Shown here: piece after piece, positions 1,253 through 60,000 of the stretch
Layout: each line of letters starts with the position of its first letter
Position numbering within the stretch: the stretch's first letter is position 1
Source of the DNA: Opitutales bacterium
GTDB taxonomy: Bacteria; Verrucomicrobiota; Verrucomicrobiia; Opitutales; UBA2987
Length of the DNA stretch: 64,000 nucleotides
Reading direction: 5' to 3'
Assembly: GCA_965226885.1 (NCBI GenBank)
Contig: CBDDEL010000016.1
Location: 1-64,000 of the forward strand
Position numbers and translations under genes: made by a program
The notes under the pieces: generated by a model
Told to the model about the DNA's origin: nothing
Database searches by the model: none
What the model saw: only the letters and a program-made list of their open reading frames with translations

Positions 1253-2716
1253 CCCGGATATTTCGTAAAAAAAGTATCGTTGATATGCTTAACTGCTGAT
1301 ATACAGCAGGATAGATCAATAATTAAAGCAATATCAGCGATGACAAAAGGTAAACAATTAAAGCTACAGTTGACAAGGGTAAAAGGCCGCCGTGTGCGGG
1401 TTGATTTCAAGGGCGGAGAGGTTACTTCGGATGCCGGACTGCTTTTGATCCGGGAAGTGGATCGGCAGTTGGGCTTGACCGAACGAGCGGCCCGACAGTT
1501 AGTGGACAAACGGCAGAAGGGCAAAGTACGCCATGAGGTATTGGGGATGCTGCGGCAGCGCGTTTACGGGCTGGTGGCGGGCTATGAGGATTTGAACGAC
1601 TTTGATACCCTGCGCCACGATCCATTGTTGCAAACGGTAACGGGGCGCATTGAAACGTTGGCCAGCGCGCCGACTTTGTGTCGTTTTGAAAACGGGCAGG
1701 ATCGGCGGGCGGCCTTTGCGGTAAACGAGCTGTTGGTCGAACAGTTCATGGGCTCCTTTGCCGAGGAACCCGAAGAGATCATCCTGGACTTTGACGCCAC
1801 CGACAATCCGGTGCACGGGCTCCAGGAGGGACGTTTTTTCCACGGTTATTATGATCATTACTGTTTTCTGCCGCTATATGTTTTTTGCGGTGATCAGCTG
1901 CTGGTGGCCTACCTGCGGCCGAGCAAGATCGATGCCAGCAAGCATGCCGGGGCCATCCTCAAATTGCTGGTTAAACGGATTCGCCAAAGCTGGCCCCGTA
2001 CGCGGATTATCTGGCGCGCCGACAGTGGATTTTGTCGAGACCGGATACTCTCTTGGTGCGACCGCAACGAAGTTAGTTACATCGTGGGGATGGCTCGCAA
2101 TGCACGCTTGCAGCAAGACGCCCAGCAGTTGCAAAAGCAGGCCAAAGAATGGTTCGAACTAAGGGGTAAAAAACAACGGTTATTCCAGGACTTCGTCTAT
2201 GCTGCCGATTCGTGGCGATGGCTGCGGTTGGTCATCCATAAAGCCGAACACACCGCACAGGGGTCCAACCCGCGCTTCGTGGTGACGAACCTGCCGGGCG
2301 ATCCCCAGGAGCTTTACGACAAGGTATACTGTGGCCGCGGTGAAATGGAGAACCGAATCAAGGAACAGATGCAATTGTTCAGCGAGCGCACCAGCGCCCA
2401 TCAATGGTGGGCCAATCAGTGGCGATTGCTCTTGTCGGCGCTGGCCTACACCTTGATGGAAGCCATGCGCCGGTTAGCCTTAAAAGGGACGAAGTGGGCG
2501 CGGGCCCAATGCCACACCCTGCGGCTCAAATTAATCAAGATCGGAGCGGTCATCGTGCGCAACACCCGAACGATTCACTTTCACCTAACACCCGAACGAT
2601 TCACTTTCAACTAAGTGAGAGTTATCCTTGGGCCAGTCTTTTCAACCATGCGGCCCGCCGATTGGTGCCAACCTAAAGGGTGCATTGGTGCTGCCCCCGG
2701 CACTACCGAACCAATG
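1253..2716 (+). mobile_element. IS1380-family element, right end replaced by IS3; transposase frameshifted near its end
   Basis: Left IR CCCGGATATTTC at 1253. Transposase from ATG 1340 with a 26-bp duplication at 2561-2612. Confidence 0.95.
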
Positions 2717-4041
2717 TGACGTGTACTGGATTTGTTGGACACGGGATTCTCTTATATTCATTGTTTATTGATTAGTGTGTCAGGCGGCTTGTTTTGGTAA
2801 AGGGTTTTGTTTTCTCGTTGCCCCCCATGGGGGGCAAATATTTTCCTCGAATTGGACTGGGCTTTGGTAACTCAGAGAGGAATGTTTGCGATATCGGTTG
2901 TAGAAGATTTCCACGTATTCGAAGACAGTTGATCGCAGTTCGCGCTCGTCGGCAAAGTGGCGGCCTCGAATCGTGCTGGTCTTGAAGCGGCCGTAGAACG
3001 ATTCCATGGCCGCGTTGTCGTAGCAGTTGCCTTGGCCGCTCATGCTCGGCTTCATGTCTAGTTCAGAGACCAGCCTCTGATAGTCGTCGCTGGCGTAGGG
3101 GCTGCCCCGATCGCTGTGATGAATAATCCCGGTGCGCAGTGTGCCGCGGGTCATGGCCGCGGCTTTGAGGGCCTTGCCAACCAGCTTCGCGTCGTTGTGG
3201 TTGGAAACGCTCCAGCCCAGCAGGCGTCGGCTGAACAGGTCCATCACCGTGGCCAAGTACATCCAACCGGCCAGGGTCCGTAGGTAGGTCGTGTCCGCCA
3301 CCCAGACCTCGTCGATATGGGTCGGCTGGCCATGCTTTTTAAGCACATTGGGGCTGTAACCATAGGGATGGTTACTGTTGGTTTTTAATGGCTTAAAGCG
3401 TTTACTCTGGGTGCTTTTGATTCCCATTTCACGCATCAGACGCAGAGCCCGGTCACGGCCGCAATCGATGCCCTCATCATCCTTCAGATGGCGGTGCATT
3501 GGCCGATGCCCATAGCGGCCCTTGGCCTCTTTGTGTACCTTCAGGATCGCCCCCTTGATTCCCTCGTCCTCGATCCGCCGGGCCGAGGGCGCTCGGGGCC
3601 TCCAGCAGTAATAGCCACTGCGACAAATCCCCATCGCCGAGCATATTTCCTCGATCTTGAAGCGCCCCTCGTTGTCTTTGACAAACTGGTACTTCATTGT
3701 TCGTCCTTGGCAAAGTAGCCCACCGTTTTTTTTAGTATCTGGTTGATCCGCTCCGAGCGGCGCAGCTCTTTGCGAAGACGATCTATCTCGGCCGCCATCT
3801 CCTTCGGACTGCTCTGTCGCTTTGAGGTGGCTTCGCCCTGCTGATCGTCCAGATAGAGCCTCTTCCACCTATACAATTGGTTGGTGTTGACCCCAAGTTT
3901 GGTCGATACCTCGGTGGCGCTCAGACCATCGAGTATCATCAGTTGAACTGCCTCATTTTTGAACTCTATACTGCGTCTTCTTCCCATGCTTCGATTCTCC
4001 ATTTAGGAGAATCTCGTGTCCACTTTTTCCAGTGCACATCA
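2717..4041 (-). mobile_element. IS3-family element type A (orfA 3694-4002; orfB ends 2780)
   Basis: Termini TGATGTGCACTGG / TGACGTGTACTGG. rve integrase motifs WVADTT, HSDRGS, DNAAMESF. A-run frameshift site at the end of orfA. No target duplication. Confidence 0.95.
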
Positions 4042-6154: not shown

Positions 6155-6307
6155 CTAAGCACCCTGGAAAAAGTCGTCGATGCCTACCTGATGCCTACCT
6201 GACTGAAAAGCAAAACTGAATCCTAATCCAAGGTGAACTGCGGATAATAGATTTCAAGTGCGGTAGAAGTGGATCTGCTTGGAAGCCATAGAGCGGCTTG
6301 ACCTCTT

Positions 6308-8296: not shown

Positions 8297-8355
8297 CGGC
8301 CGTCAAGTATCAGCATGTTTAGTCCCTCATTCTGCATCTTGCAAAAAAACACCGG

Positions 8356-8778
8356 TCAATCTTTCATTCCGGGTTGGTAATACCTGTCCCTGTAGAAGCG
8401 GACTTTCCAGGACGAATGATGGGAAACCATGGTGACCTGCAAATTATTAATAATCTTTTCCGTGCCCCAGAATGAATCCTGGCCTGGACGATCCAGCCTG
8501 ATGACCTGATTAATATTCAGAGTTGTCGATTTTTCTCCTCTGCGGATATCCTTGATTTTATAACTCACCCATCGAATTTTTCCTCTAAAGGCTTCATCGC
8601 GCTTTTTTCTGTTGGAGAAAGGTTTGAGGGCTTCGGTACCGCTGACCATATTTCGCGCGGCCTGTGCATCTTTATCCAGCAACGCCCGCGAGTATTTCTT
8701 AATGGCAATCACTTCCTGCGTGGTATGTACCATGACAAGCTTGAAAAGGTTCAGCCCAACCAAAACGAGGATAACTAG
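8356..8778 (-). pseudogene. Hypothetical exported protein, 5' end cut by IS1380
   Basis: 135-aa ORF whose hydrophobic N-terminus runs into the IS1380 end at 8779. Confidence 0.5.
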
Positions 8779-11700
8779 CCCGGATATTTCATGAAGGGTA
8801 AAGTTTGGCTCGTTATTGCTATTGGAGATGGATTTCTTTGTATTTTGAGCAGATCGTCTTGATTTTTAGGTGTTTTTCAGGGTGTAGAGACACTGCCCCC
8901 TTTCCCCCATTGGTTCGGTAGTGCCGGGGGCAGCACCAATGCACCCTTTAGGTTGGCACCAATCGGCGGGCCGCATGGTTGAAAAGACTGGCCCAAGGAT
9001 AACTCTCACTTAGGTGAAAGTGAATCGTTCGGGTGTTGCGCACGATGACCGCTCCGATCTTGATTAATTTGAGCCGCAGGGTGTGCCATTGGGCCCGCGC
9101 CCACTTCGTCCCTTTTAACCCGGATATTTCATGAAGGGTAAAGTTTGGCTCGTTATTGCTATTGGAGATGGATTTCTTTGTATTTTGAGCAGATCGTCTT
9201 GATTTTTAGGTGTTTTTCAGGGTGTAGAGACACTGCCCCCTTTCCCCCATTGGTTCGGTAGTGCCGGGGGCAGCACCAATGCACCCTTTAGGTTGGCACC
9301 AATCGGCGGGCCGCATGGTTGAAAAGACTGGCCCAAGGATAACTCTCACTTAGGTGAAAGTGAATCGTTCGGGTGTTGCGCACGATGACCGCTCCGATCT
9401 TGATTAATTTGAGCCGCAGGGTGTGGCATTGGGCCCGCGCCCACTTCGTCCCTTTTAAGGCTAACCGGCGCATGGCTTCCATCAAGGTGTAGGCCAGCGC
9501 CGACAAGAGCAATCGCCACTGATTGGCCCACCATTGATGGGCGCTGGTGCGCTCGCTGAACAATTGCATCTGTTCCTTGATTCGGTTCTCCATTTCACCG
9601 CGGCCACAGTATACCTTGTCGTAAAGCTCCTGGGGATCGCCCGGCAGGTTCGTCACCACGAAGCGCGGGTTGGACCCCTGTGCGGTGTGTTCGGCTTTAT
9701 GGATGACCAACCGCAGCCATCGCCACGAATCGGCAGCATAGACGAAGTCCTGGAATAACCGTTGTTTTTTACCCCTTAGTTCGAACCATTCTTTGGCCTG
9801 CTTTTGCAACTGCTGGGCGTCTTGCTGCAAGCGTGCATTGCGAGCCATCCCCACGATGTAACTAACTTCGTTGCGGTCGCACCAAGAGAGTATCCGGTCT
9901 CGACAAAATCCACTGTCGGCGCGCCAAATACTCCGCGTACGGGGCCAGCTTTGGCGAATCCGTTTAACCAGCAATTTGAGGATGGCCCCGGCATGCTTGC
10001 TGGCATCGATCTTGCTCGGCCGCAGGTAGGCCACCAGCAGCTGATCACCGCAAAAAACATATAGCGGCAGAAAACAGTAATGATCATAATAACCGTGGAA
10101 AAAACGTCCCTCCTGGAGCCCGTGCACCGGATTGTCGGTGGCGTCAAAGTCCAGGATGATCTCTTCGGGTTCCTCGGCAAAGGAGCCCATGAACTGTTCG
10201 ACCAACAGCTCGTTTACCGCAAAGGCCGCCCGCCGATCCTGCCCGTTTTCAAAACGACACAAAGTCGGCGCGCTGGCCAACGTTTCAATGCGCCCCGTTA
10301 CCGTTTGCTAACAATGGATCGTGGCGCAGGGTATCAAAGTCGTTCAAATCCTCATAGCCCGCCACCAGCCCGTAAACGCGCTGCCGCAGCATCCCCAATA
10401 CCTCATGGCGTACTTTGCCCTTCTGCCGTTTGTCCACTAACTGTCGGGCCGCTCGTTCGGTCAAGCCCAACTGCCGATCCACTTCCCGGATCAAAAGCAG
10501 TCCGGCATCCGAAGTAACCTCTCCGCCCTTGAAATCAACCCGCACACGGCGGCCTTTTACCCTTGTCAACTGTAGCTTTAATTGTTTACCTTTTGTCATC
10601 GCTGATATTGCTTTAATTATTGATCTATCCTGCTGTATATCAGCAGTTAAGCATATCAACGATACTTTTTTTACGAAATATCCGGGTTAAGGCTAACCGG
10701 CGCATGGCTTCCATCAAGGTGTAGGCCAGCGCCGACAAGAGCAATCGCCACTGATTGGCCCACCATTGATGGGCGCTGGTGCGCTCGCTGAACAATTGCA
10801 TCTGTTCCTTGATTCGGTTCTCCATTTCACCGCGGCCACAGTATACCTTGTCGTAAAGCTCCTGGGGATCGCCCGGCAGGTTCGTCACCACGAAGCGCGG
10901 GTTGGACCCCTGTGCGGTGTGTTCGGCTTTATGGATGACCAACCGCAGCCATCGCCACGAATCGGCAGCATAGACGAAGTCCTGGAATAACCGTTGTTTT
11001 TTACCCCTTAGTTCGAACCATTCTTTGGCCTGCTTTTGCAACTGCTGGGCGTCTTGCTGCAAGCGTGCATTGCGAGCCATCCCCACGATGTAACTAACTT
11101 CGTTGCGGTCGCACCAAGAGAGTATCCGGTCTCGACAAAATCCACTGTCGGCGCGCCAAATAATCCGCTTACGGGGCCAGCTTTGGCGAATCCGTTTAAC
11201 CAGCAATTTGAGGATGGCCCCGGCATGCTTGCTGGCATCGATCTTGCTCGGCCGCAGGTAGGCCACCAGCAGCTGATCACCGCAAAAAACATATAGCGGC
11301 AGAAAACAGTAATGATCATAATAACCGTGGAAAAAACGTCCCTCCTGGAGCCCGTGCACCGGATTGTCGGTGGCGTCAAAGTCCAGGATGATCTCTTCGG
11401 GTTCCTCGGCAAAGGAGCCCATGAACTGTTCGACCAACAGCTCGTTTACCGCAAAGGCCGCCCGCCGATCCTGCCCGTTTTCAAAACGACACAAAGTCGG
11501 CGCGCTGGCCAACGTTTCAATGCGCCCCGTTACCGTTTGCAACAATGGATCGTGGCGCAGGGTATCAAAGTCGTTCAAATCCTCATAGCCCGCCACCAGC
11601 CCGTAAACGCGCTGCCGCAGCATCCCCAATACCTCATGGCGTACTTTGCCCTTCTGCCGTTTGTCCACTAACTGTCGGGCCGCTCGTTCGGTCAAGCCCA

Positions 11701-15172: not shown

Positions 15173-15189
15173 AATAATATATATTATCT

Positions 15190-16520
15190 CACTAGTGTCC
15201 AGTTAAAAGCCCTTGAGCATCAACTGGTTGTGTAATGCTAAGTTTGGCTTTCTTGTTTCGAACTTTGCAAGTAGTTGATATACAGGATCTTTTTGAAAGA
15301 CGTTCACACTCAAAACTTGCAGAATCCGACTCAGACTTTCAGTGACTCCATGCACTTTTTTCAAACAGGCGACCATGAGATAAACGCATATGGCTACCCA
15401 AATTTGGGTCTTCACGGCGTTTTCGGTGGTGCCGTAGAAAGCCTTGATGCGGAGGTTTTGCTTGATCCACTTAAAGAACAGCTCAATGCGCCAGCAGAAC
15501 AGCTCAATGCGCCAGCGGCTTTTGTAAATGGCCGCGATAGTCAAGGCGGGCAAGGTGAAGTTGTTGGTGAGGAAGACCAGCCTCTGGCCAGTTGCGCCAT
15601 CGCGGTAGCGAATGCGCCGGAGCTTGCCGGGGTATTGGCTTTTGCTTTTGGCGACTTTCAATCCGATGATCTGGTCGCAACTGATTCCGCTGGATCGGTC
15701 CACGGGTTGGGAAGCACTAACGTAAAAACTCATATTGCTTTTGGCGCGGGTGACGAAGAAGGCAGCAGCCAAATGGATGCGAAAGAGCCGCTGAAAATCG
15801 ACGTAACCACGATCCATTACGTAAATGCTTGCGGGTTCAAAAGCCAGTTCATCAAGGATGTTCACGTCATGCACGCTTGCGTCTGTAATACTGATGAATA
15901 TAGGGATGGAGCCACGCAAGTCCATCATCGTATGCAGTTTGATGGCCGCCTTGGTGCGGCGAAATGTTGCCCACGAAAACAACGACAGGCACAGGTCTAT
16001 GGTCGAGGCATCCAGGGCATAAACCATCTCGTCTACATTCAATCCAATCGCGTCTTGGGCATACAAACGGCGCGCCTTGGCGATGAGCACTTGAGCCAAT
16101 GCTTCGTAAAGGCGCCAGTTGCGATGCTCGTTGGCGTAGGCCAAGTTCGTGCGTGTCACATTGCCCCGGATTCCCATCGCATACAAGTGAGGACTTCCCC
16201 GCAGACACGCCTCGATGTCACGCAAACTCTCACGGAATGTCATTTGCGCAAAGGCCATGCTCAAGAACTGATCACGGGCACTGAAACTACGACTGGTTCT
16301 TGGCATGGGATAAAGACTAACGCAGCGTTCGAACTGTTCGCGATGGAGCAAATCCATCGCCTGCGTGAATGCAAGGCGGCCTTCGTTCATGCTGCCCAGT
16401 CTCAAAAAGGGTGCGGAAAGCGCCAGCTAACTTCAAATGCGTCACATCCATGTGGCTACTCAACAAACACATCATCAACGAAATACGACTTTAGACTGGC
16501 CGCTTAACTGGACACTAGTG
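15190..16520 (-). mobile_element. IS4-family element (transposase 15203-16405)
   Basis: Perfect 17-bp IR CACTAGTGTCCAGTTAA. 9-bp TSD ATATTATCT. Motifs LDAST, MDRGY, YKSRWRIE. Confidence 0.93.
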
Positions 16521-16980: not shown

Positions 16981-18630
16981 GGTAGTGTATAAAAAAAGAA
17001 TGTTATTTTGTATTTTTAGCTGTACACATAGCGTTAGGCAGTTTATTTTTAGTGCATGGTTACTAAAATTATTAATTGTCGGCACTGTGGAAGTGAAAAT
17101 ATCATTAAATTTGGCAAGACGCCCAACCATAAACAGCGCTACCGCTGCCATGATTGTGGTAAACAAAGCCGCGAAAACCCCACAGTGAAATACACCGAAG
17201 AGCAAAAAGAAATGGGTAGTGTTAACATGACATAAATGGGTAGTGTTAACATGACATGGGTAGTGTTAACATGACGAATGTTTGATATTGCTGTTGTATT
17301 CCCAGATGAACAAGCACAGGACGCGAAAATGCATGACCAAAGACTTCGAGAATGACAGCGTTTTACGCACATAGCGTGACAGGGACTGTCGCAAGGTATT
17401 GTTCCAGCGTTCGATATGGGCGGTTTGGCCGGATTGTTTCCCGCTGGCGCTGTTGTGAGGGAAAACCTTGTCGTAGCTTTCCCAGTAATCGCTTACGGTG
17501 GCACAGTCGCGATAGGGCTGGGCGATGTTGTGATACAACTGCCAGCACGTTTGATCGCTACGATCACCCAGAGAAAACCCGACGACCTGTCGGGTACGTC
17601 GACACAAGGCTACCCATAGCCATACCTGCCCCGAACGCTTATCGCCCCAGAATGACCACACCTCGTCCAGTTCCAGCACATCACTACACTGGCGGGCAAG
17701 CAGAGTGGACTCCAGCTTCGGCAAACTCAGGACTTTTTTTTAATCCATTCGATGACCGTCTTTGGGGCTACCCCGAAGGTACGGTAAATGGCACGCAGGC
17801 TCATCCGGTTTTGGTGCGCACGGAGCACCTGCTTGACCAGCGCCGGAGGATGCTCACGACTTTTGGGGTGAAGCCGAAACTGATAACCACACCCCTTGCA
17901 TCGATACTTCTGAACCCCTTTCGGATCCTTGCCGTGCTTGATGATGTGATCGCTTCCGCATTGAGGACATTTTACTGTGATATGGACCATTCCCAGTTCA
18001 CAACATAATCACGCTAAAAAGTACAGCTTAAACATTCAAAATGTTAACACTACCCAGGAACGCAGCAGTCTACGCGGTTTACAGCGCGCCTTCGGGGTGA
18101 GTCCCAACACCGTTTTGAGTTGGTTAAAAAAAACGACAATCGCTGCGACCGCTCAAAAGCACGATTCTTGCGGCCCGCCGCCATGATGTCATTGAACTGG
18201 ACGAACTGTGGTCTTTTGTGGGGCGCAAGAGCGATGCCCAATGGGTTTGGATCGCTCTTTGCCGACGCACCCGTCAAATCCTCTCCTATGCCATTGGGCC
18301 TCGGGATTGGTATCCATTGGGCCTCGGGATTGGTATCGTTGCCGGGAACTTTACGAGCGTCTGCCACGGGCCTACAAAAGATGTGCCACCTACAGCGACT
18401 TTTGGAGCACTTATGATGAAGTCTTTCCTCATAACCGATCCGTGGGAAAAGAAACCGGTGAAACGGCCCATGTGGAACGATGGAACAATACCCTGCGCCA
18501 ACGACTGGGTCGTTTCACACGCAAAACCCTCTCCTTTTCCAAGCTTAAGAGTATGCATGAAACCTGTCTGAGACTTTTCATTCATCAATATAATCAAGAA
18601 TTAGCCACCATTCCTACTTAATACACTACC
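16981..18630 (+). mobile_element. IS1 type a interrupted by IS1 type b
   Basis: Termini at 16981 and 18630. 15 bp missing at the junction. 23-bp duplication in insB. Confidence 0.92.
17215..18054 (-). mobile_element. IS1-family element type b with triplicated right end
   Basis: GGTAGTGTTAACA termini. InsA (CPQC..CKGC) at 17727-17990, InsB at 17266-17724. Confidence 0.92.
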
Positions 18631-30583: not shown

Positions 30584-30927
30584 TCCTCCTTTCTAGGATA
30601 AGCGTACCGGTTTTAAAGCGCCCTCTTTACCGTACCGGTTTTTCCCCGGCGTTTACATTTTTCTCTATTACTACTATATCTTACGAAAAAATATAATGTA
30701 TTTAAGGATATTTTCATTTCCATTCTTATTCTAATCCATTCTTATTCTAATAATCCCCCTCGTAATATATTTAAGTTTTTTTACAGAAGATATCAGACAG
30801 ACTGGTCCGTACGCGGTTTATGAGCATATGTTATCATTGGTCGATATTTCGGGCACAGGTATTTATAAAAATAAAGATAGCATCGGATCCGGAGCCAATA
30901 ATCGCTTCCGAATTGTCTGGTGGAAAT

Positions 30928-32134
30928 TGATGTGCACTGGAAAAAGTGGACACGAGATTCTCCTAAATGGAGAATCGAAGCATGGGAAGAAGACGCTTTA
31001 GTATAGAGTTCAAAAATGAGGCAGTTCAACTGATGATACTCGATGGTCTGAGCGCCACCGAGGTATCGACCAAACTTGGGGTCAACACCAACCAATTGTA
31101 TAGGTGGAAGAGGCTCTATCTGGACGATCAGCAGGGCGAAGCGATCAGCAGGGCGAAGCCACCTCAAAGCGACAGAGCAGTCCGAAGGAGATGGCGGCCG
31201 AGATAGATCGTCTTCGCAAAGAGCTGCGCCGCTCGGAGCGGATCAACCAGATACTAAAAAAAACGGTGGGCTACTTTGCCAAGGACGAACAATGAAGTAC
31301 CAGTTTGTCAAAGACAACGAGGGGCGCTTCAAGATCGAGGAAATATGCTCGGCGATGGGGATTTGTCGCAGTGGCTATTACTGCTGGAGGCACCGAGCGC
31401 CCTCGGCCCGGCGGATCGAGGACGAGGGAATCAAAAGCACCCAGAGTAAACGCTTTAAGCCATTAGAAACCAACAGTAACCATCCCTATGGTTACAGCCC
31501 CAATGTGCTTAAAAAGCATGGCCAGCCGACCCATATCGACGAGGTCTGGGTGGCGGACACGACCTACCTACAGACCCTGGCCGGTTGGATGTACTTGGCC
31601 ACGGTGATGGACCTGTTCAGCCGACGCCTGCTGGGCTGGAGCGTTTCCAACCACAACGACGCGAAGCTGGTTGGCAAGGCCCTCAAAGCCGCGGCCATGA
31701 CCCGCGGCACACTGCGCACCGGGATTATTCATCACAGCGATCGGGGCAGCCCCTACGCCAGCGACGACTATCAGAGGCTGGTCTCTGAACTAGGCATGAA
31801 GCCGAGCATGAGCGCCCAAGGCAACTGCTACGACAACGCGGCCATGGAATCGTTCTACGGCCGCTTCAAGACCAGCACGATTCGAGGCCGCCACTTTGCC
31901 GACGAGCGCGAACTGCGATCAACTGTCTTCGAATACGTGGAAATCTTCTACAACCGATATCGCAAACATTCCTCTCTGAGTTACCAAAGCCCAGTCCAAT
32001 TCGAGGAGAATATTTGCCCCCCATGGGGGGCAACGAGAAAACAAAACCCTTTACCAAAACAAGCCGCCTGACACACTAATCAATAAACAATGAATATAAG
32101 AGAATCCCGTGTCCAACAAATCCAGTACACGTCA
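30928..32134 (+). mobile_element. IS3 type A, defective (17-bp duplication; 138-bp deletion)
   Basis: The deletion lies between GGGAATCAA direct repeats in orfB. Confidence 0.92.
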
Positions 32135-40820: not shown

Positions 40821-43192
40821 ATGGAAAGCGACCACCAGAGGCATATCGCCGTAATTATGTTCACGGACATCGTGGGCTACAGCGCGCTGGCTCAAAAGAA
40901 CGAAGCCCTCAGCCTTGAACTGCTGGAGGAACACCGGGGATTGCTGCGTCCAATATTCGGACGGTTCGGGGGTAAGGAAATCGAGACCATCGGCGATGCA
41001 TTTTTCCTGGAGTTCACCAGCGCCCTGGAGGCCGCGCCCTGGAGGCCGTAAAGTGCGCCTTCGAAATTCAAAATGCTCTTTTTGGCCGCAACTCCCTGGA
41101 ACCCGGGGAGCGAAAGATCATCCTTCGCATCGGCATCCATCTCGGGGATGTCATGCAAATGGGGGAAAAGGTGCTTGGCGATGGGGTCAACATTGCCTCC
41201 CGCATTCAAACCGCAGCCAGACCCGGTGGCATTTGCATCTCCGACCACGTTTACATGCAGGTGCGCGACAAACTGGAGATGCAGTGGCAATCGCGAGGCG
41301 AGTTGAAACTCAAAAACATCGAGAGACCCATGGAGGTTTTCGATATTATTTTCCCTTGGGAAAAGGAGCAGGCAGCACCACCCAAAAGCAGAGCGAAAAC
41401 AAAATTCGCAGCAGGCAAATACCTTTGGCCCATAATAGCCGTCGCGGCAGTAGTCCTCATAGTGGGTTATTTTTGGAAATTCCCTTCCCGCGAGAGCGCT
41501 CCAACTTACGTTTCCCCTCCCGTCACGGCGGCGCCCGAGTTGCCCCATTACGACTCCATCGCCGTGCTTCCCTTCGAGAACATGAGCAATGACCAGGAAA
41601 ATGTCTATTTCGCGCGAGGCATTCACGAGGATATTTTGACGAGTCTTGCCAAGGTCAAAGCCCTCAAGGTGATCTCCCGAACCTCCGTCATGGAATATGA
41701 GAACAAGACCCGCAATCTGCGAAAAATTGCAGAGGATCTGGGGGTTTCCACTATTCTCGAAGGTAGCGTGCGACGGTCCGGTATGCGTGTTAAAATTACG
41801 GCTCAGTTGATCGATGCGAAGACGGACGAACATCTTTGGGCGGAAAGTTACGACCGGGACTTGACGGATATTTTCGCCCTCCAATCCACCATCGCCGAGG
41901 AAATCACTGGCGCTTTGAAAGCGACTCTCAGCCCGGAAGAAAAAGAAAACCTGGAAAGGCTGCCGACCCAAAGCGGAGAGGCTTACGACATCTATTTGAG
42001 GGCGCGGGACTATCACCTCCAGGCCGTGGCGGATGAAAATGCTGCCGGACAGGCCGAGAGGCTCTATGGACAAGCTATTGGGCGAGATCCGAGTTTCGCG
42101 CTGGCTCATGCTTGGCTGGCCCATTTGCACAGCGAAATGTATTGGCAGTTATCTGTGGACCGCAGTGAGGAGCGATTGCAGAAATTGAAATCGTCGGCGG
42201 ACCGGGCGCTGCAATTGCAACCGGATCTTCCCGAGGGGCAGACGGCCCTGGCCAACTATTATTACTACGGGTTTCGCAATTATGGCCGTGCCCAGGGAAT
42301 TCTGGAGAGAGTACGTGAGTCTCTGCCCAACAACGCCGAAGTGCTTGCCATTCTCTCCTATATCGAGCGCCGCCAGGGCCAATGGGAATTGAGCACGAAC
42401 CATCTTGAAAAAGCGGTCGGCCTGGACCCGCGCAATGTGGATTACAAGTTGCAGTTGGCATTAAGTTACTACCAAATGCGTGACCTTGAGGCCGCCATAC
42501 CTTTATTGGATGAAGCGCTTGAAATACAGCCCGACGCCGTGGGTCTCGCCGTCATAAAGGGCCGTATTTATTTAGGTTTGACCGGGGATACATCTGTAAT
42601 GAAAAAAATCCTGGATGAGATTCCACCTAACCTGGATCCCTATGGCCGGATTAGTAATGGCCGCTTCGTTTTAGATATCTGGGAGCGGGATTTCGAGGGC
42701 GCCCTCCCCTTTATTGAGGCTTTTGCTCAACCTGTCGATGATGGGCAATCATTCGTCAGACATCGGGATCAATACAGGGGCATGCTTTACCACTACATGG
42801 GTGATAAAGAAAAATCCCGCCGGGCCCTGGAGTCGGCTCTGGCCTTTCTGGAACCCGCTTTGGCCGAACATCCAAAGGATGCCCGCTACCATGCATCTAT
42901 CGGGTCTACTTATGCTCTACTGGAACGCAAAGAAGAGGCCATAGAGGCGGGGATCGAAGCGGTGAAACTGATGCCCCAAACCAAAGACGCCTTGGTAGGA
43001 AATGATTACGAACGGAATTTAGCTGGCATTTATGCGAATGTTGGTGAGCCCGACAAAGCCATCGACCTGCTTGAGGATTTGCTCTCCAAACCTGGCAGGT
43101 TGGCCGTACCCGCGCTGCGAAATCTTTGTTATTGGGATCCACTACGCAGCCACCCAAGGTTTCAGGCATTGTTAGCCAAAGACGGCGGATAA
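40821..43192 (+). pseudogene. Class III nucleotidyl cyclase + TM + TolB-like + TPR protein, frameshifted by a 14-bp duplication
   Basis: [45 protein letters not shown] repeats. Removing 41034-41047 restores a single ORF. Confidence 0.88.
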
Positions 43193-48414: not shown

Positions 48415-48517
48415 TTTTAACCGCAGTTTACGCAGATAAGCGCATATGGATGTTTGATTAAGTGCAGATTAATGTTTACGAGAAATCTGTGCCCATCTGT
48501 CTAATCCGTGGTTAAAA
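48415..48517. repeat. Imperfect ~34-bp inverted repeat (REP/MITE-like hairpin)
   Basis: TTTTAACCGCAGTTTACGCAGATAAGCGCA vs reverse complement TTTTAACCACGGATTAGACAGATGGGCACA. Confidence 0.6.
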
Positions 48518-48560
48518 AATTAGGGAATTGAAGGATTTTTTCCTGGAATCTTTAAAGATA

Positions 48561-51739: not shown

Positions 51740-51826
51740 CACGGCCGAACCGGAAACCTTTAAAAAGAGCCTCCAAGCAGCCGGCCCCGAAACCAGCATC
51801 CGCAAAATCGCTAACAAGGGCCTTAA

Positions 51827-53589
51827 CCCGGATATTTCATGAAGGGTAAAGTTTGGCTCGTTATTGCTATTGGAGATGGATTTCTTTGTATTTTGAGCAG
51901 ATCGTCTTGATTTTTAGGTGTTTTTCAGGGTGTAGAGACACTGCCCCCTTTCCCCCATTGGTTCGGTAGTGCCGGGGGCAGCACCAATGCACCCTTTAGC
52001 CCGGATATTTCATGAAGGGTAAAGTTTGGCTTGCTATTGCTATTGGAGATGGATTTCTTTGTATTTTGAGCAGATCGTCTTGATTTTTAGGTGTTTTTCA
52101 GGGTGTAGAGACACTGCCCCCTTTCCCCCATTGGTTCGGTAGTGCCGGGGGCAGCACCAATGCACCCTTTAGGTTGGCACCAATCGGCGGGCCGCATGGT
52201 TGAAAAGACTGGCCCAAGGATAACTCTCACTTAGGTGAAAGTGAATCGTTCGGGTGTTGCGCACGATGACCGCTCCGATCTTGATTAATTTGAGCCGCAG
52301 GGTGTGGCATTGGGCCCGCGCCCACTTCGTCCCTTTTAAGGCTAACCGGCGCATGGCTTCCATCAAGGTGTAGGCCAGCGCCGACAAGAGCAATCGCCAC
52401 TGATTGGCCCACCATTGATGGGCGCTGGTGCGCTCGCTGAACAATTGCATCTGTTCCTTGATTCGGTTCTCCATTTCACCGCGGCCACAGTATACCTTGT
52501 CGTAAAGCTCCTGGGGATCGCCCGGCAGGTTCGTCACCACGAAGCGCGGGTTGGACCCCTGTGCGGTGTGTTCGGCTTTATGGATGACCAACCGCAGCCA
52601 TCGCCACGAATCGGCAGCATAGACGAAGTCCTGGAATAACCGTTGTTTTTTACCCCTTAGTTCGAACCATTCTTTGGCCTGCTTTTGCAACTGCTGGGCG
52701 TCTTGCTGCAAGCGTGCATTGCGAGCCATCCCCACGATGTAACTAACTTCGTTGCGGTCGCACCAAGAGAGTATCCGGTCTCGACAAAATCCACTGTCGG
52801 CGCGCCAAATAATCCGCGTACGGGGCCAGCTTTGGCGAATCCGTTTAACCAGCAATTTGAGGATGGCCCCGGCATGCTTGCTGGCATCGATCTTGCTCGG
52901 CCGCAGGTAGGCCACCAGCAGCTGATCACCGCAAAAAACATATAGCGGCAGAAAACAGTAATGATCATAATAACCGTGGAAAAAACGTCCCTCCTGGAGC
53001 CCGTGCACCGGATTGTCGGTGGCGTCAAAGTCCAGGATGATCTCTTCGGGTTCCTCGGCAAAGGAGCCCATGAACTGTTCGACCAACAGCTCGTTTACCG
53101 CAAAGGCCGCCCGCCGATCCTGCCCGTTTTCAAAACGACACAAAGTCGGCGCGCTGGCCAACGTTTCAATGCGCCCCGTTACCGTTTGCAACAATGGATC
53201 GTGGCGCAGGGTATCAAAGTCGTTCAAATCCTCATAGCCCGCCACCAGCCCGTAAACGCGCTGCCGCAGCATCCCCAAGACCTCATGGCTTACTTTGCCC
53301 TTCTGCCGTTTGTCCACTAACTGTCGGGCCGCTCGTTCGGTCAAGCCCAACTGCCGATCCACTTCCCGGATCAAAAGCAGTCCGGCATCCGAAGTAACCT
53401 CTCCGCCCTTGAAATCAACCCGCACACGGCGGCCTTTTACCCTTGTCAACTGTAGCTTTAATTGTTTACCTTTTGTCATCTTTTGTCATCGCTGATATTG
53501 CTTTAATTATTGATCTATCCTGCTGTATATCACTGCTGTATATCAGCAGTTAAGCATATCAACGATACTTTTTTTACGAAATATCCGGG
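51827..53589 (-). mobile_element. IS1380 with an extra 173-bp right end; transposase 52169-53479 intact (436 aa)
   Basis: TTAA TSD flanks the whole unit. A second right IR starts at 52000 after TTAG. Confidence 0.93.
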
Positions 53590-54449
53590 TTAAGGGGCTG
53601 GAAATCAACTTGAAGGAGCGTCTGTGGTCGGGCGGGGCCTACATATTCACCGCCTTTTTACTGGTCGGCTGCCTTTACCGTTTTCGCAACAACCTGGCTG
53701 CAACAACCTGGCTAACAGCATGCGTTGGTGCGCTGTTTTAACCATACTCATCGTTCTGGTCCTGCAGCCATTTTTCAACAGCGGCCTATCGCAAAGACTG
53801 CCCGCCATTTATCTGGCACCCCTCATCATCTTATTTGGGGCCGGCTTTGTCATCATCATGCTGGAGAGCACCGGCCGGCGATTGCAAATGGAACGTATGG
53901 TCTGGATTTCGGCCTTGCTGCTATTCCAGGCCATACCGATGGTCCACAATTTGATGGAGCCCAAAAGAAATCCATTTACATATCCACCCTATATCCCCTC
54001 TCTGCTGGCCCGCACACGCACCCACCTGTCCGATCGGTTTTACCCCGGTTATGGGTTCATGTCGGATGTGCCCGCCGGGATGGCCTGGTATTCCCAGCAA
54101 CCGGTGTGGGCACAACCCGGCGAATATTCCGATTTTGTGGAGACCCTCCTACGTCAGGAAATCGGGGCTCTCTTTCTTTCCCCAAAAGTGCTCGACCGCC
54201 CTTATTTTTCCCAACTGCTGCAAGCGGACCTGGAACTGGGAGACGATTATAAAAAGAAAAGATATTGGGGCGCTGTCTACGGTAGCCTGCAGCAGGGCTC
54301 TCTACCGCGGTTTTTTCCCTTGAGTCAGGTCCAGCAAATTTCCACCAACATGTATGTGCTTTCCAATCCCCTTGCCTGGCGTCAGGAATAAAAAAAATTG
54401 TATTGACCCTGGTAGGTTTTGCCTGCACCTTTACCGGCGCTTAATACAG

Positions 54450-56543
54450 ATGAATAAAGCCACACCACTACTCCTGCTTGTTGCATTGCAAACCACGCTA
54501 TTTTCGGCGTTTACGCTCCCATCCCGGAGCAGGAACAAGGAAAGGCGATCGTTTTGAGCCTCGAAGGCGGCTACCATTACGACAGTAACATTCTGGGCAG
54601 CCCCAGTAACGACCCGGACAGACCGGTTCAGGACAGTTCCGTCTTCACCGTTACCCCCGGCATCAAGTACAACGCCTCCATTGAGGAACAAAGCTTTATC
54701 CAGGCCTCCTACCTGCTGAACGCCCTCCTTTATTCGGAACGACCCACCGAGGACAAGCTCTACAACCATTTTTTCAACGTCAGGTTTTCGCACACCTTTA
54801 CGCCCACTCTAATTTTGGAAGTGTCCGACGCTTATTCATTAATCGACAGCCCGGAATCTTCTTTAGATCTTCCTTTTAATGAAGGACAATTGCAGACCAA
54901 TCAGTCCAACAACATTAATCAATTCGATTTCAGTTAATCAATTCGATTTCAGCCTGGCTGCGGAATTGAGCCCAAAAACCAGCATGGTCTTTAAATACCG
55001 CAATTTTAACTTTGCTTACGATGATACCCCAGTAGCGTTTCAATTGGATCGCAATGACAATCTCTTTGGCATCCAGGCAGGCTACAACTGGACTCCGGAA
55101 GCTTCATTGGTCTTCGAATATCGATCCCAGGACCGCGCCTACGCCTTCGACGGTGGTGCGAAGAACAGCGATTCCAGCTTTTTTCTATTCGGGGTGGACT
55201 GCGGGGTGGACGGGGTGGACTGCGGGGTGGACTGGATTCCAAGCCCCACCTTTCAGATAAATGGGCGCCTTGGCGTGGACGACCGTGAACGGGAAATCGG
55301 CGCAGGCGACACCAATTTTTGGTAGTGTATAAAAAAAGAATGTTATTTTGTATTTTTAGCTGTACAAATAGCGTTAGGCAGTTTATTCTTAGTGCATGGT
55401 TACTAAAATTATTAATTGTCGGCACTGTGGAAGTGAAAATATCATTAAATTTGGCAAGACGCCCAACCATAAACAGCGCTACCGCTGCCATGATTGTGGT
55501 AAACAAAGCCGCGAAAACCCCACAGTGAAATACACCGAAGAGCAAAAAGAAATGATCCTTCGAGTCTATCAGGAACGCAGCAGTCTACGCGGTTTACAGC
55601 GCGCCTTCGGGGTGAGTCCCAACACCGTTTTGAGTTGGTTAAAAAAAACGACAATCGCTGCGACCGCTCAAAAGCACGATTCTTGCGGCCCGCCGCCATG
55701 ATGTCATTGAACTGGACGAACTGTGGTCTTTTGTGGGGCGCAAGAGCGATGCCCAATGGGTTTGGATCGCTCTTTGCCGACGCACCCGTCAAATCCTCTC
55801 CTATGCCATTGGGCCTCGGGATTGGTATCGTTGCCGGGAACTTTACGAGCGTCTGCCACGGGCCTACAAAAGATGTGCCACCTACAGCGACTTTTGGAGC
55901 ACTTATGATGAAGTCTTTCCTCATAACCGATCCGTGGGAAAAGAAACCGGTGAAACGGCCCATGTGGAACGATGGAACAATACCCTGCGCCAACGACTGG
56001 GTCGTTTCACACGCAAAACCCTCTCCTTTTCCAAGCTTAAGAGTATGCATGAAACCTGTCTGAGACTTTTCATTCATCAATATAATCAAGAATTAGCCAC
56101 CATTCCTACTTAATACACTACCCAATTTTTATGGCCAGCTAACCGGAATTTACCAGTACCATCCCGATTCGTTTATGGCTTTCAGCATCACTTACGAAAC
56201 GGTCGAAACCTCGGCTCCCGTTGCCTTTTCCGGTGAGGAAACCTTCTCCTTATTGCTCAATGTTCAACATGCCCTCACGAGCAAGATATTCCTGGCCGGT
56301 TCCATTTATTACGATACGGCGGACCTAATTAAACAAAATGCTCTAGCAAATATTAGCGACAATACCGTTCGCCTCGGTTTAAGCGCCATCTACCAGCCTA
56401 CACAAAACTGGTCGATCATCTTCAGCTACGATTTTGACGACACCGATTCGGATGATCCCTCTTTAGCCCCGGGGGCCATTAATTCTCGCACGGAAACCCG
56501 GTCCCGGGTAGGAATCAGCGCCCGTTACACCTTTGGTCTGTAA
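54450..56543 (+). pseudogene. Outer-membrane beta-barrel protein of the EPS export locus, frameshifted and split by IS1
   Basis: Signal peptide, Y.YDSNI, alternating aromatic beta-strands, C-terminal ARYTF. Lies directly upstream of wzc. Confidence 0.75.
55321..56122 (+). mobile_element. IS1 type a (802 bp)
   Basis: 8-bp TSD CAATTTTT. Confidence 0.95.
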
Positions 56544-57993
56544 GCCTGGAAAATATTTTTATCCGGTCGTCCAGTCGACAATCACAAATTTGAACTGGAG
56601 AATCTTGGCGCGGCTAACAGATTTATCCTCGTTCCACCTCAATTGAAGCAATAATTGCTCACCCATGGAATCCAATCTAAAAAAGACGGCTGCCGGCTTT
56701 TCACTCGGCGACTTCCTTAAAGTCCTCAAAACCCGTTGGCCCCTGATTACGCTTTTACTCCTTCTGGTGCTCAGTTCCACAGTTCTTTTTACCTATTTCA
56801 TGCCCAGATGGTACCTGTCCATAGCCGGGATACGGGTGGAAAAAGCTGAAGGGCAAGTTTCAGTTTTCGAACGCCAGAGGACCGGTAGTTTCGATCCCTA
56901 CTTCAACAAAGAGCAGTTCGAGATTATTCAGAGCAAAAAAATACTCCGTCAGGTGATCCGGAATCTCGACCTCGTCAATTATATCAGTCGAGACCTCGGC
57001 GCGCCCATAGACGAGGAATATGCTTACCAGTATATGGTTAAACAAATGCTCCTGGTAGAGTCCCGACCCGGCACCTCCCTTATCGACATCGGCGTGATGG
57101 TTAAAGGAAACCGCGATAAAGCCGCCGAAATTGCCCACGAAATTGCCCGTGTTTATGCCGAAGACCGCATTAAATTCGCTACCTCTGCCCAAACCGAGGG
57201 CATCGTGAGACTCAAGCAGGAACTTTTGCGGCAGGAAGTTTCCGTCTCTCAGGAACGCGACAAGGTGGAAAAATTGCGTCAGGAACTAGGGATCTCCGGA
57301 GTGGACCTAAATGCCCAGACGACACAACTGGATATCGACAACCTGCGGCAACTCGAACGCACCTACATCGCCGTAAAAGTCGATTCCATTGCTCGAAAAA
57401 CCCGCTGGGAGCAATTTAAAGCCGTTCCGGTCGAAGAGCGAATCCGGTTGATCAATTCCGAACTCATTCCAGACGTTAACCTGCAAAACCTCATGCAGGC
57501 CTACATGGTAGCCGAGCAGCAGCATGTCCGCGCCAAAGGGCGCCTGGGCCAAGCCCATCCCGATTTCTTGGCGGTGGAAAATACCCTCAAAAAAATCCAC
57601 GAACAATTGCTGAACCAATTGCTGAACCAGTTGATCGGATTCGAAAAATCCCTCGAAATATCCTATATCGAATCCAGGGCGCGAACCGATGAAATGAAAA
57701 ACCAGCTCAAGCTAGCCCGGGTCGATCAGATTCTGGATGCCCAAAGCAAAATGCGACCCTTTGAGGAAGCCGTGGATCGTTTGAGGGATGAGGAAAACCT
57801 CCTGCAAACCTTTCGATTGACCCTGCGCCAAAGGGAGATCGATTTCCAGGCCCCCAAACGAACCATTGAAATGCTCAACCAAGCGGTACCCTCGCTACGC
57901 CCGCACAAACCAAACTGGCTCCTCAATCTGTTTCTGGCCATCTTTGGAGGAATCCTTCTGGGCGTGGGGGCGGCTTTTATGGTCGAATTTTTC

Positions 57994-60000
57994 GACACCA
58001 GTTTTTGTTCCATCGAAGAGACACCAGTTTTTGTTCCATCGAAGAGACACCAGTTTTTGTTCCATCGAAGAGACACCAGTTTTTGTTCCATCGAAGAGAC
58101 ACCAGTTTTTGTTCCATCGAAGAGACACCAGTTTTTGTTCCATCGAAGAGACACCAGTTTTTGTTCCATCGAAGAGACACCAGTTTTTGTTCCATCGAAG
58201 AGACACCAGTTTTTGTTCCATCGAAGAGACACCAGTTTTTGTTCCATCGAAGAGACACCAGTTTTTGTTCCATCGAAGAGACACCAGTTTTTGTTCCATC
58301 GAAGAGACACCAGTTTTTGTTCCATCGAAGAGACACCAGTTTTTGTTCCATCGAAGAGACACCAGTTTTTGTTCCATCGAAGAGACACCAGTTTTTGTTC
58401 CATCGAAGAGACACCAGTTTTTGTTCCATCGAAGAGACACCAGTTTTTGTTCCATCGAAGAGACACCAGTTTTTGTTCCATCGAAGAGACACCAGTTTTT
58501 GTTCCATCGAAGAGACACCAGTTTTTGTTCCATCGAAGAGACACCAGTTTTTGTTCCATCGAAGAGACACCAGTTTTTGTTCCATCGAAGAGACACCAGT
58601 TTTTGTTCCATCGAAGATGACGTGTACTGGATTTGTTGGACACGGGATTCTCTTATATTCATTGTTTATTGATTAGTGTGTCAGGCGGCTTGTTTTGGTA
58701 AAGGGTTTTGTTTTCTCGTTGCCCCCCATGGGGGGCAAATATTTTCCTCGAATTGGACTGGGCTTTGGTAACTCAGAGAGGAATGTTTGCGATATCGGTT
58801 GTAGAAGATTTCCACGTATTCGAAGACAGTTGATCGCAGTTCGCGCTCGTCGGCAAAGTGGCGGCCTCGAATCGTGCTGGTCTTGAAGCGGCCGTAGAAC
58901 GATTCCATGGCCGCGTTGTCGTAGCAGTTGCCTTGGGCGCTCATGCTCGGCTTCATGCCTAGTTCAGAGACCAGCCTCTGATAGTCGTCGCTGGCGTAGG
59001 GGCTGCCCCGATCGCTGTGATGAATAATCCCGGTGCGCAGTGTGCCGCGGGTCATGGCCGCGGCTTTGAGGGCCTTGCCAACCAGCTTCGCGTCGTTGTG
59101 GTTGGAAACGCTCCAGCCCAGCAGGCGTCGGCTGAACAGGTCCATCACCGTGGCCAAGTACATCCAACCGGCCAGGGTCCGTAGGTAGGTCGTGTCCGCC
59201 ACCCAGACCTCGTCGATATGGGTCGGCTGGCCATGCTTTTTAAGCACATTGGGGCTGTAACCATAGGGATGGTTACTGTTGGTTTTTAATGGCTTAAAGC
59301 GTTTACTCTGGGTGCTTTTGATTCCCATTTCACGCATCAGACGCAGAGCCCGGTCACGGCCGCAATCGATGCCCTCATCATCCTTCAGATGGCGGTGCAT
59401 TGGCCGATGCCCATAGCGGCCCTTGGCCTCTTTGTGTACCTTCAGGATCGCCCCCTTGATTCCCTCGTCCTCGATCCGCCGGGCCGAGGGCGCTCGGTGC
59501 CTCCAGCAGTAATAGCCACTGCGACAAATCCCCATCGCCGAGCATATTTCCTCGATCTTGAAGCGCCCCTCGTTGTCTTTGACAAACTGGTACTTCATTG
59601 TTCGTCCTTGGCAAAGTAGCCCACCGTTTTTTTTAGTATCTGGTTGATCCGCTCCGAGCGGCGCAGCTCTTTGCGAAGACGATCTATCTCGGCCGCCATC
59701 TCCTTCGGACTGCTCTGTCGCTTTGAGGTGGCTTCGCCCTGCTGATCGTCCAGATAGAGCCTCTTCCACCTATACAATTGGTTGGTGTTGACCCCAAGTT
59801 TGGTCGATACCTCGGTGGCGCTCAGACCATCGAGTATCATCAGTTGAACTGCCTCATTTTTGAACTCTATACTAAAGCGTCTTCTTCCCATGCTTCGATT
59901 CTCCATTTAGGAGAATCTCGTGTCCACTTTTTCCAGTGCACATCAAGAGACACCAGTTTTTGTTCCATCGAAGAGACACCAGTTTTCGTTCCATCGAAGA
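57994..60000 (+). repeat. 26-bp tandem array GACACCAGTTTTTGTTCCATCGAAGA, 26 copies (24 + IS3 + 2)
   Basis: 57994-58617 is 624 bp = 24 x 26. Two more units at 59949-60000; the last has C instead of T. Confidence 0.97.
58618..59945 (-). mobile_element. IS3 type A (1328 bp) inserted in the tandem array
   Basis: 3-bp TSD AGA. Confidence 0.95.

Follow-up and report, generated by a model that had tools for sequence, protein, structure and literature searches.

How do tandem repeats originate in DNA that is not yet repeated? The question is an open one, and its one experimental lead, a set of point mutants of topA in E. coli, came with neither a sequence motif nor a mechanism (PMC6954433). The question is raised by a 64-kb stretch of DNA, referred to throughout as ‘the window’, from a transposon-laden marine bacterium whose genome is labelled G000 in comparisons. 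TRF, an exact scan and direct reading of the sequence together recovered every tandem duplication listed in the original prediction. The window holds 16 exact events with a period of at least 10, versus 0.08 expected by chance per 64 kb, the chance level being set by five third-order Markov surrogates of the contig. Exactness, which had been claimed for all of the listed units, fails only for the 26-bp unit at 2561, and the array at 57994, previously counted as 26 copies, comprises 24.0 exact copies of 26 bp, with 2.3 more beyond an IS3-type insertion. The features are as follows; the mark that some lines mention, a C five bases from the junction, is described below.

2561–2614, unstranded: 26-bp unit in 2.1 copies, at an IS1380-type end; the copies differ by one mismatch.
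6179–6202, minus strand: exact 11-bp duplication in unique DNA; microhomology 2; right flank G at +5.
15475–15516, plus strand: exact 21-bp duplication within a DDE transposase gene; microhomology 0; both boundaries with C at -5.
17210–17275, unstranded: two exact duplications that overlap, one of 24 bp at 17210 and one of 20 bp at 17236.
18291–18337, unstranded: exact 23-bp duplication within an IS copy; microhomology 1.
30719–30751, unstranded: exact 16-bp duplication; microhomology 1; without the mark.
31125–31159, unstranded: exact 17-bp duplication in an IS3-family copy; absent from the sister copy at 20356.
31426–31434, unstranded: junction of a 138-bp deletion, with a 9-nt overlap, in the IS3 copy that also has the duplication at 31125; it contrasts with the duplications.
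41020–41048, plus strand: exact 14-bp duplication in unique DNA directly upstream of a TPR gene; left flank C at -5.
53470–53490, minus strand: exact 10-bp duplication in an IS1380-type copy; missing from the IS copies of an independent sample.
53520–53545, plus strand: exact 13-bp duplication close to the end of the IS1380-type copy that carries 53470, and in that IS copy only.
53686–53713, minus strand: exact 14-bp duplication that shifts the frame of a conserved gene; G004, G003 and sample S20 have one copy; bridged by a contig of run X19.
54915–54952, unstranded: exact, frameshifting 19-bp duplication; G004 and G003 have one copy; a contig of run X19 bridges it.
55190–55234, plus strand: exact duplication of 21 bp at 55190, nested with another of 12 bp at 55211; only one copy aligns with the congeners.
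57604–57629, unstranded: exact in-frame 12-bp duplication in a Wzz-like gene; single-copy in G004, G002, G001 and S20.
57994–58617, unstranded: 24 exact copies of a 26-bp unit, in the Wzz-like frame; single-copy in G004, G002 and G001.
59941–60000, unstranded: a further 2.3 copies of the 26-bp unit of 57994, with a 94% match, beyond the IS3-family insertion that splits the array.

The duplications are not an assembly artefact. Two contigs of run X19 (1782 and 1926 nt), from an independent k-mer assembly, have 0 differences to the window and bridge 53686, 54915, 55190/55211 and 57604, reproducing five duplications exactly. The check was made on Logan contigs over one 4.6-kb stretch, and X19 and X20 are probably the source sample; even so, an artefact of assembly or polishing is extremely improbable, as an assembler would not be expected to produce the sequence mark and hotspots described below, lengths that are multiples of three are enriched within ORFs, and a related population carries a duplication of its own. 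Sample S20 comes from another study; it carries a 9-nt tandem duplication of its own, at 56242–56250, and the single-copy state at 53686, 57604 and 53470; its contig at 57604 (320 nt) is single-copy and otherwise identical to the window. The single-copy state was also seen in four congeners (G004, G003, G002 and G001, varying by site).

What had been described as a window-wide signature is real, but it is not specific to the window. The genome-wide repeat scan that the original prediction had proposed yields 602 events in 5.48 Mb, versus about 7 expected, and the density per contig is 7–24 events per 100 kb everywhere except in the 10-kb contig C3, which has 0. Among periods of 20–40, the copies match exactly in 177 events, differ at one base in 12 and at two in 7. 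Across five IS families, 72 insertions of at least 4 nt occur in a single copy only, the sister copies being unduplicated, just as had been noticed in the window; duplications of at least 4 nt account for about one in eight of the changes in IS copies, and duplications stand to deletions at about 3:1. Long ORFs hold 5.2 events per 100 kb and the DNA outside them 39, and lengths that are multiples of three make up 41% of the events within ORFs versus 23% of those outside (Fisher p = 2e-4). These data support the view that the duplications are genuine mutations, recent and specific to single copies, on which selection has acted as a filter. The accompanying statement that intact genes contain none is only roughly right: the duplication at 57604 lies in frame in the open Wzz-like frame, and 165 of 527 unique events genome-wide fall within ORFs of at least 150 aa. 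Duplications are common in IS copies and break conserved genes (e.g. the frameshift at 53686), and are relevant in this respect to genome decay.

The duplications differ from deletions in what they require of the surrounding sequence. Junction microhomology, given as 0–2 nt in the original prediction, is 0–2 nt in the window and in 533 of 577 events genome-wide (92%): 0 nt in 323 (56%), 1 nt in 142 and 2 nt in 68. At least 4 nt is present in 24 of the 577, and flanking repeats of several nucleotides are not the rule. The 31 IS deletions of at least 4 nt, in contrast, mostly use 3–10 nt of microhomology, and the 138-bp deletion with its 9-nt overlap, at about 31426–31434, was confirmed. Deletions obey a different, microhomology-dependent rule, and the duplication process would be one in which 6–40 bp of one DNA strand are copied, with no need for a pre-existing repeat.

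The duplicated segments also carry a mark. On one strand, the start and the end of the segment both lie five bases downstream of a C in an A/T-rich patch, with a consensus of roughly T-T-N-C-A-A-T-N immediately before the junction. C occurs at -5 on one outer side in 230 of the 289 unique events without microhomology, versus 46% of random pseudo-events (p = 1e-31). Marks on the two outer sides exclude one another (odds ratio 0.30, p = 1e-6), and the inner mark accompanies the outer mark of the same strand (odds ratio 2.7, p = 7e-5). With orientation set solely by the upstream C, 52% of 186 events have C at -5 of the downstream boundary, versus a background of 26%. The C is found at -5 of both junction partners; at position -4, A accounts for 50% and C for 16%. 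Each event, in other words, has polarity. The same boundaries are, moreover, reused by independent events: hotspots in IS family F6 have one boundary in common and differ in length, at position 62 (20 and 24), 155 (7, 8 and 9), 799 (9 and 13) and 1479 (6, 7, 9, 11 and 14). Low-power tests for strand bias found none, with 38:36 for the sense versus antisense strand of ORFs and 23:30 for the G-rich versus C-rich strand.

Is this genome unusual in accumulating such events? Their density per 100 kb is 11 in this genome, 5.1 in its closest congener, G004, and 1.3 on average in 12 other relatives. Insertions of at least 4 nt and substitutions in IS copies number 72:341 here versus 6:132 in G004 (Fisher p = 6e-5), a duplication rate per substitution about 4.6-fold that of the congener. 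A lineage-enhanced duplication bias is supported by these comparisons. The idea of a lineage-specific mutator is borne out as far as the excess goes, but not in its exclusiveness: G004, which is also IS-rich, shows a moderate excess with a weak mark (16/29), so the process is not strictly confined to G000.

What enzyme might leave a mark of this kind? The mark resembles a type IA topoisomerase site. Like type IA cleavage sites, it consists of a single C in an asymmetric A/T-rich patch, upstream and on one strand (PMC9352719, PMC3467081, PMC13476441); such a C is needed by E. coli topo I upstream of its cut (PMC9352719). In E. coli topo III it is arginine R178 that reads the -5 base, although the enzyme is described as weakly sequence-selective (PMC13476441), and R178 is conserved in the enzyme of this genome. 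The genome has one Topoisom_bac match, the only type IA enzyme found, and by its NCBIfam and PDB matches it is topo III-type (NF006032, 1072 bits; E. coli topo III at 5e-86 versus topo I at 4e-35). Unlike the published rule for bacterial topo I and reverse gyrase, by which the C lies 4 nt from the cut (PMC3467081; PMC7587558; PMC9352719), the C here lies 5 nt from the junction, the putative cleavage site. No type IB topoisomerase was found in the genus. Across the order, 30 of 31 genomes have one type IA match each, and four further relatives that were aligned have E. coli topo III-like N-termini; the topo III-type enzyme is order-wide, yet duplications are few in most sampled relatives, which counts against the topoisomerase as the explanation. 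Only one residue, A14T, departs from a column in which at least 95% of homologues agree (114 of 120 have A). As a cause it is disfavored: 4 of the 120 naturally have T at this position, and two genomes of this kind do not show the duplication phenotype, with 5 events in 200 kb and 0 in 160 kb.

We give about even chances to the reading that the events are real, young mutations arising from a one-strand duplication process in which a topo III-type enzyme cuts, a polymerase extends, and the enzyme reseals. The sole type IA topoisomerase would cut one strand at the mark and stay on the 5' end. A polymerase would then extend the freed 3' end, copying the next few bases, and the enzyme would rejoin its 5' end to the lengthened 3' end once its preferred sequence recurred there. 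The resulting loop would become a tandem duplication at the next replication. A fuller version of this proposal, in which the cut falls 5 nt after the C, extension and resealing take place at a second site, and the reaction is unleashed by loss of exonuclease VII in a genus in which no SbcD, Ku or Pol I polymerase domain was found, is possible but decidedly more tentative. If true, new tandem repeats would have a general, site-marked source in topoisomerase ‘extend-and-reseal’.

In several respects the events recall the E. coli topA mutant R168C, which produces repeat-independent tandem duplications of 2–19 bp at hotspots (PMC6954433, Bachar et al., Nucleic Acids Res 2020): in both, short head-to-tail duplications arise independently of repeats, hotspots occur and a type IA enzyme is implicated. 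In others they differ. This is a wild, uncultured lineage; its enzyme is topo III-type rather than TopA, with all strictly conserved residues unchanged; and its duplications extend to about 40 bp, and its arrays to 24 copies. A mark is found at both ends here, whereas no motif was found in the topA study, and the deletions given by the topA allele R35P are without counterpart here (PMC6954433). The literature searched yielded no report of a natural topo III-linked duplication mutator. This genome supplies several hundred natural events with base-exact junctions, displaying polarity, a two-end mark and hotspots, with deletions as an internal control, and the catalogue turns the question of origin into concrete assays on defined oligonucleotides.

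Loss of exonuclease VII (ExoVII) is a candidate, and unproven, cause of the raised rate. Its large-subunit gene, xseA, is split in G000 by an IS of about 1.55 kb together with a frameshifting 1-nt deletion, and is intact in G004, G001, G002 and G005; by our own reading, no other xseA copy among the order's 151 genomes is split. Searches of the genus found no SbcD and no Ku. The substrates of ExoVII include DNA whose 5' end bears a protein-derived tyrosine, and the enzyme also degrades single strands (PMC7929499, Huang et al., Sci Adv 2021). The role shown in that paper concerns gyrase adducts; tandem duplications are not reported there, and loss of ExoVII in E. coli caused no sensitization to a trapped type IA enzyme (PMC7929499). 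Among 584 sampled orthologues, 43 are clearly broken and 26 more partially so (7–12%), such that one broken gene among the dozen or so repair genes tested is about what chance would give. xseA was not found in G011, G015 and G026, which have 1, 5 and 2 events in 120–140 kb, mostly multi-copy arrays; these genomes are reduced and gene-dense, which makes the comparison weak. Of the other repair genes inspected, mutS, mutL and recJ are intact; Ku was not found in the genome.

The same extend-and-rejoin chemistry might be performed by another strand-specific nickase (HUH/relaxase-type, RAYT-like or some unknown nuclease), although we consider this rather unlikely. The 5-nt register, one nucleotide off the type IA rule (PMC9352719), would suit such an enzyme, one 370-aa frame that weakly matches Y1_Tnp persists in G000, and the link between topoisomerase and mark, drawn from sequence, makes the former a candidate only. 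The weak Y1-like frame is, however, common to G001 and G002, both of which have few duplications, and G004 has 55 IS200/IS605 TnpA copies yet fewer marked events than G000, with its 2 weak matches. All IS families examined in the window are of the DDE type, and the single C in its asymmetric A/T-rich patch is the published type IA signature.

Faulty maturation of Okazaki fragments, in which, for want of a Pol I polymerase, displaced 5' flaps would be ligated back and the mark would reflect primase starts, is unlikely. The Pol I polymerase domain was not found in five of five genus genomes, which have only a stand-alone 5'-nuclease of 317 aa, and C/AA might be read, by our own inference, as a primase start after a cryptic base. 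But the domain was likewise not found in 20 of 31 genomes of the order, several genomes without it have few duplications, and relatives with few duplications have the same gene set. The loss of flap nuclease or Pol I that the original prediction had proposed also fails on its other count: the nuclease gene is an intact 5_3_exonuc_N frame, stand-alone as in the congeners. Okazaki processing gives no reason to expect the mark again at the downstream boundary, and there is no lagging-strand bias (23:30). Duplications of the flap type, as in yeast rad27, are flanked by repeats of 3–12 bp, and the events here are not.

Ordinary slippage or microhomology-mediated duplication, seen through relaxed selection and drift in a decaying, IS-laden genome, is more improbable still. 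Such a route would also yield a short tandem duplication able to grow into an array later, but it needs flanking microhomology (bioRxiv 10.64898/2026.02.28.708716), which 56% of the events here do not have. In its favor are the concentration of events outside long ORFs, the proportion of broken orthologues, the 24 events with microhomology of 4 nt or more, and the intermediate density in IS-rich G004; against it are the 533 with only 0–2 nt, a position-specific, strand-exclusive mark and hotspots that retention bias leaves unexplained, and the 4.6-fold ratio to G004, which was obtained from IS copies, taken as near-neutral.

Staggered nicks in opposite strands, filled in and joined, or an element with long and variable target duplications, both of them also put forward originally, are very improbable. 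In their favor are the very heavy IS load, with 31.6% of the genome repeated, and paired nicks, which are cited as a source of tandem duplications in plants (PMC6954433). Opposite-strand nicks, however, predict opposite-strand marks, whereas the outer marks here exclude one another and marks pair on the same strand. Same-strand marks do not fit an element of that sort either, and in the window the IS families examined are all DDE. Ku was not found, and at a single hotspot, F6 1479, the lengths are not fixed but vary from 6 to 14.

The window opens a 951-kb contig of an assembly that comprises 17 contigs and 5.48 Mb (52% G+C, 96% completeness). Every tandem duplication that the original prediction read in it is confirmed by TRF, by an exact scan and by direct reading, and with them the observation as a whole. 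Two need correction in detail: the duplication at 2561 is present, but is not exact, having one mismatch in its unit; and the 26-bp array at 57994, also present, consists not of 26 copies but of 24 exact copies, with 2.3 more past an IS3-type insertion. Exact events—short head-to-tail duplications—of period at least 10 number 16 in the window, against 0.08 from Markov surrogates. The signature extends beyond the window: the whole genome contains 602 events of period 10–60, against ~7 expected, of which 577 have two copies and 25 have three or more. Their density is 7–24 per 100 kb on every contig except the 10-kb C3, which has none. The window is an IS graveyard, whose IS families occur in ~320, 212, 165, 140, 80 and 47 copies genome-wide, and repeated DNA accounts for 31.6% of the genome. 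Longer tandem repeats (340 bp ×2 and 173 bp ×2, 98–99% match) occur at 8779–9458 and 51823–52172. These adjoin IS1380-type ends, have sequence in common, and may represent IS ends stacked on one another, outside the class of short duplications.

Run X19 is probably the source sample, and its Logan contigs agree with the window at every position across 1782 nt and 1926 nt, bridging the events at 53686, 54915, 55190/55211 and 57604. A related population, sampled in another study (S20), has a copy fewer at 53686, in three contigs, and likewise at 57604, where a 320-nt contig is identical elsewhere; its IS copies are without the 53470 duplication, and it has a 9-nt tandem duplication of its own (56242–56250). 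X21 and X22 have no coverage at 54915 or 55190. Congeners are single-copy at 53686 (G004 and G003), 54915 (G004 and G003) and 57604 (G004, G002 and G001), show just one aligned copy at 55190, and carry one copy of the 26-bp array unit (G004, G002 and G001). Among events of period 20–40, 177 have no mismatch between copies, 12 have one and 7 have two; the duplications are therefore young or short-lived. The 802-bp IS at 55312–56121, one of ~213 copies genome-wide, is missing from the orthologous site in G004, the closest congener. One S20 contig joins 55311 directly to 56122, and the insertion is therefore polymorphic.

Unique DNA outside long ORFs has 39 events per 100 kb (n = 222), against 5.2 inside ORFs of at least 150 aa (n = 165), and lengths that are multiples of 3 are commoner in ORFs (41%) than outside (23%; Fisher p = 2e-4). 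The multi-copy ISs provide a mutation spectrum. In five families (~1.07 Mb aligned, distinct variants counted) there are 756 distinct substitutions, together with the following changes in length.

Distinct length variants in five IS families
Insertions: 49 of 1–3 nt, 32 of 4–9 nt, 59 of 10 nt or more
Deletions: 21 of 1–3 nt, 5 of 4–9 nt, 26 of 10 nt or more

Simple tandem duplications made up 148 of 173 insertions in a count that predates the removal of a mirror-image family, and the remainder were mostly triplications or nested duplications. Microhomology at the 577 two-copy events is 0, 1 or 2 nt in 323, 142 and 68 cases, respectively, whereas the IS deletions of at least 4 nt (n = 31) mostly show 3–10 nt of it. 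The 138-bp deletion that the original prediction set against the duplications likewise uses microhomology. Because they differ in this way, duplications and deletions arise differently, and this argues against reciprocal exchange; sister-strand exchange of this kind is disfavoured, too, by the scarcity of microhomology-free IS deletions of at least 4 nt (4/31).

Junctions carry a mark: a C, 5 nt upstream, within an A/T-rich patch on one strand. Of the 289 events that remain after de-duplication and have unambiguous junctions, 47% have C at 5 nt before the left boundary, and 48% have G at 5 nt past the right one. The two outer marks are mutually exclusive (odds ratio 0.30, p = 1e-6), and each tends to occur together with its same-strand inner counterpart (odds ratios 2.7 and 1.7). 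An outer C is present at 230 of the 289 events, against 46% of random pseudo-events; in relatives, it is present at 16 of 29 events in G004, and at 5 of 17 when the first 500 kb of G004 is pooled with nine other relatives. The upstream consensus is approximately T(-8) T(-7) N C(-5) A A T N | G. With 186 events oriented on the upstream C and nothing else, the downstream boundary, which is independent of that choice, has C at -5 in 52% of cases against a background of 26%, and A-rich positions come after it. Some sites are hotspots: at positions 62, 155, 799 and 1479 of one IS family (F6), independent events of differing lengths have one boundary in common. No bias of the mark with respect to ORF sense or GC skew was seen, in a test that had little power, given a weak skew and the unreliable strand assignment of ORFs where a genome is decaying.

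With its lone C, set in asymmetric A/T-rich sequence upstream of the point where one strand is joined, the mark resembles the signature of type IA topoisomerases as PMC9352719, PMC3467081 and PMC7587558 describe it. The register differs from that given there for topo I: the C is 5 nt from the junction here, against 4 nt in topo I. A single Topoisom_bac match is present in the genome:

G000:C16:753081-755537 (L001:1045-3537), topo III-type topoisomerase, 830 aa, with two Toprim_Crpt repeats

The search of this genome yielded no canonical TopA, leaving the topo III-type protein as the sole type IA enzyme found; of 31 genomes in the order, 30 have one type IA match each. By the names of its closest homologues, the protein places the genome among Verrucomicrobiota/Opitutales. 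Its topo III-like N-terminus is common to 20 aligned relatives, and it conserves the arginine equivalent to R178 of E. coli topo III, the residue that, according to PMC13476441, reads the -5 base. We infer that a topo III-type enzyme makes the duplications by cutting, extension and resealing. It would cut at the upstream site and keep hold of the 5' end; the released 3' end would be extended; and the enzyme would reseal once the new 3' end again fitted its groove. Such a cycle would explain why the marks share a strand and a register, why the downstream one is weaker, why hotspots occur at either boundary, why duplication is favoured and why microhomology is lacking. We give a topoisomerase-type origin, the best reading of the duplications, about an even chance of being correct.

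Other nickases fare less well. The TnpA of IS200/IS605 is disfavoured, for G004 has 55 copies (G000, the genome under study, has 2 weak matches) yet fewer marked events. The IS families common to these two genomes are 99–100% identical, while their unique DNA is only 84–86% identical. The mechanisms originally put forward (loss of a flap nuclease, fill-in of staggered nicks, and an element with long variable target-site duplications) are not supported: the 5'-nuclease gene is an intact frame, the same-strand marks do not fit the other two, and Ku was not found in the genome. A type IB topoisomerase is disfavoured because none was found in the genus.

There is good support for a mutational process that favours duplication and is enhanced in this lineage. 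Events per 100 kb number 11 in G000 and 5.1 in G004 (66 in 1.3 Mb), against 1.3 for a further 12 relatives (19 in 1.46 Mb). Among IS variants found in single copy, insertions of at least 4 nt and substitutions stand at 72:341 in G000 and 6:132 in G004 (odds ratio 4.6, p = 6e-5). A sample of 73 IS copies in G004 gives 7 insertions of at least 4 nt per 261 substitutions, superseding 1 per 152 from only 27 copies. The enhancement might stem from loss of exonuclease VII (ExoVII), whose large-subunit gene, among the relatives compared, is broken in G000 only:

G000:C11:253518-256446, xseA, broken by a ~1.55-kb IS1380-type element and a 1-nt deletion

The partner gene, xseB, is intact, and none of the five genomes examined (genus g1 and G005) yielded a match to SbcD. 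Against this explanation, 7–12% of sampled orthologues are broken in G000 anyway, relatives in which xseA was not found have no excess of duplications, and the E. coli data in PMC7929499 make no link between ExoVII and type IA adducts. Our literature search found no directly usable paper tying single-strand exonucleases to tandem repeats. Two reduced genomes for which the search found no xseA, G011 (L114-L120) and G015 (L121-L127), contain multi-copy exact arrays (units of 18 nt × ~18 and 15–19 nt × 4–5, respectively), and not two-copy duplications.

The topoisomerase itself has one unusual residue, A14T, beside the TOPRIM glutamate. As a sufficient cause this is rejected: 4 of 120 homologues have T there naturally, and two genomes of this kind show no excess (G039, 5 events in 200 kb; G088, 0 in 160 kb). 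Pol I polymerase, SbcD, RNase HI and Ku were not found either, but their absence is not lineage-specific, since congeners or a large part of the order lack them just as G000 does. The Pol I polymerase domain (PF00476) was not found in 5/5 genomes of the genus, nor in 20/31 of the order, where full-length PolA occurs only in genus g2 and G025; the PF00476-negative genomes retain a stand-alone 5'-nuclease (294–402 aa). RNase HI (PF00075) was not found in 5/5 genomes (genus g1 and G005). Of the genes that the original prediction proposed to inspect, mutS and mutL are intact, as are recJ, a recQ-like gene, the genes for RNase HII/HIII, and uvrD-like genes.

In a survey covering ~30% of G004, G000 has clear breaks in 43 of 584 single-copy orthologues (~7%) and partial versions of 26 others. 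Pfam searches of 40 other broken orthologues from this survey revealed no additional repair nuclease of the classic kind; the broken genes do include a ComM-like ATPase and an HrpB-type helicase. Several of the breaks add 7–41 nt, which fits duplications, and others add 0.8–1.6 kb, which fits IS insertions.
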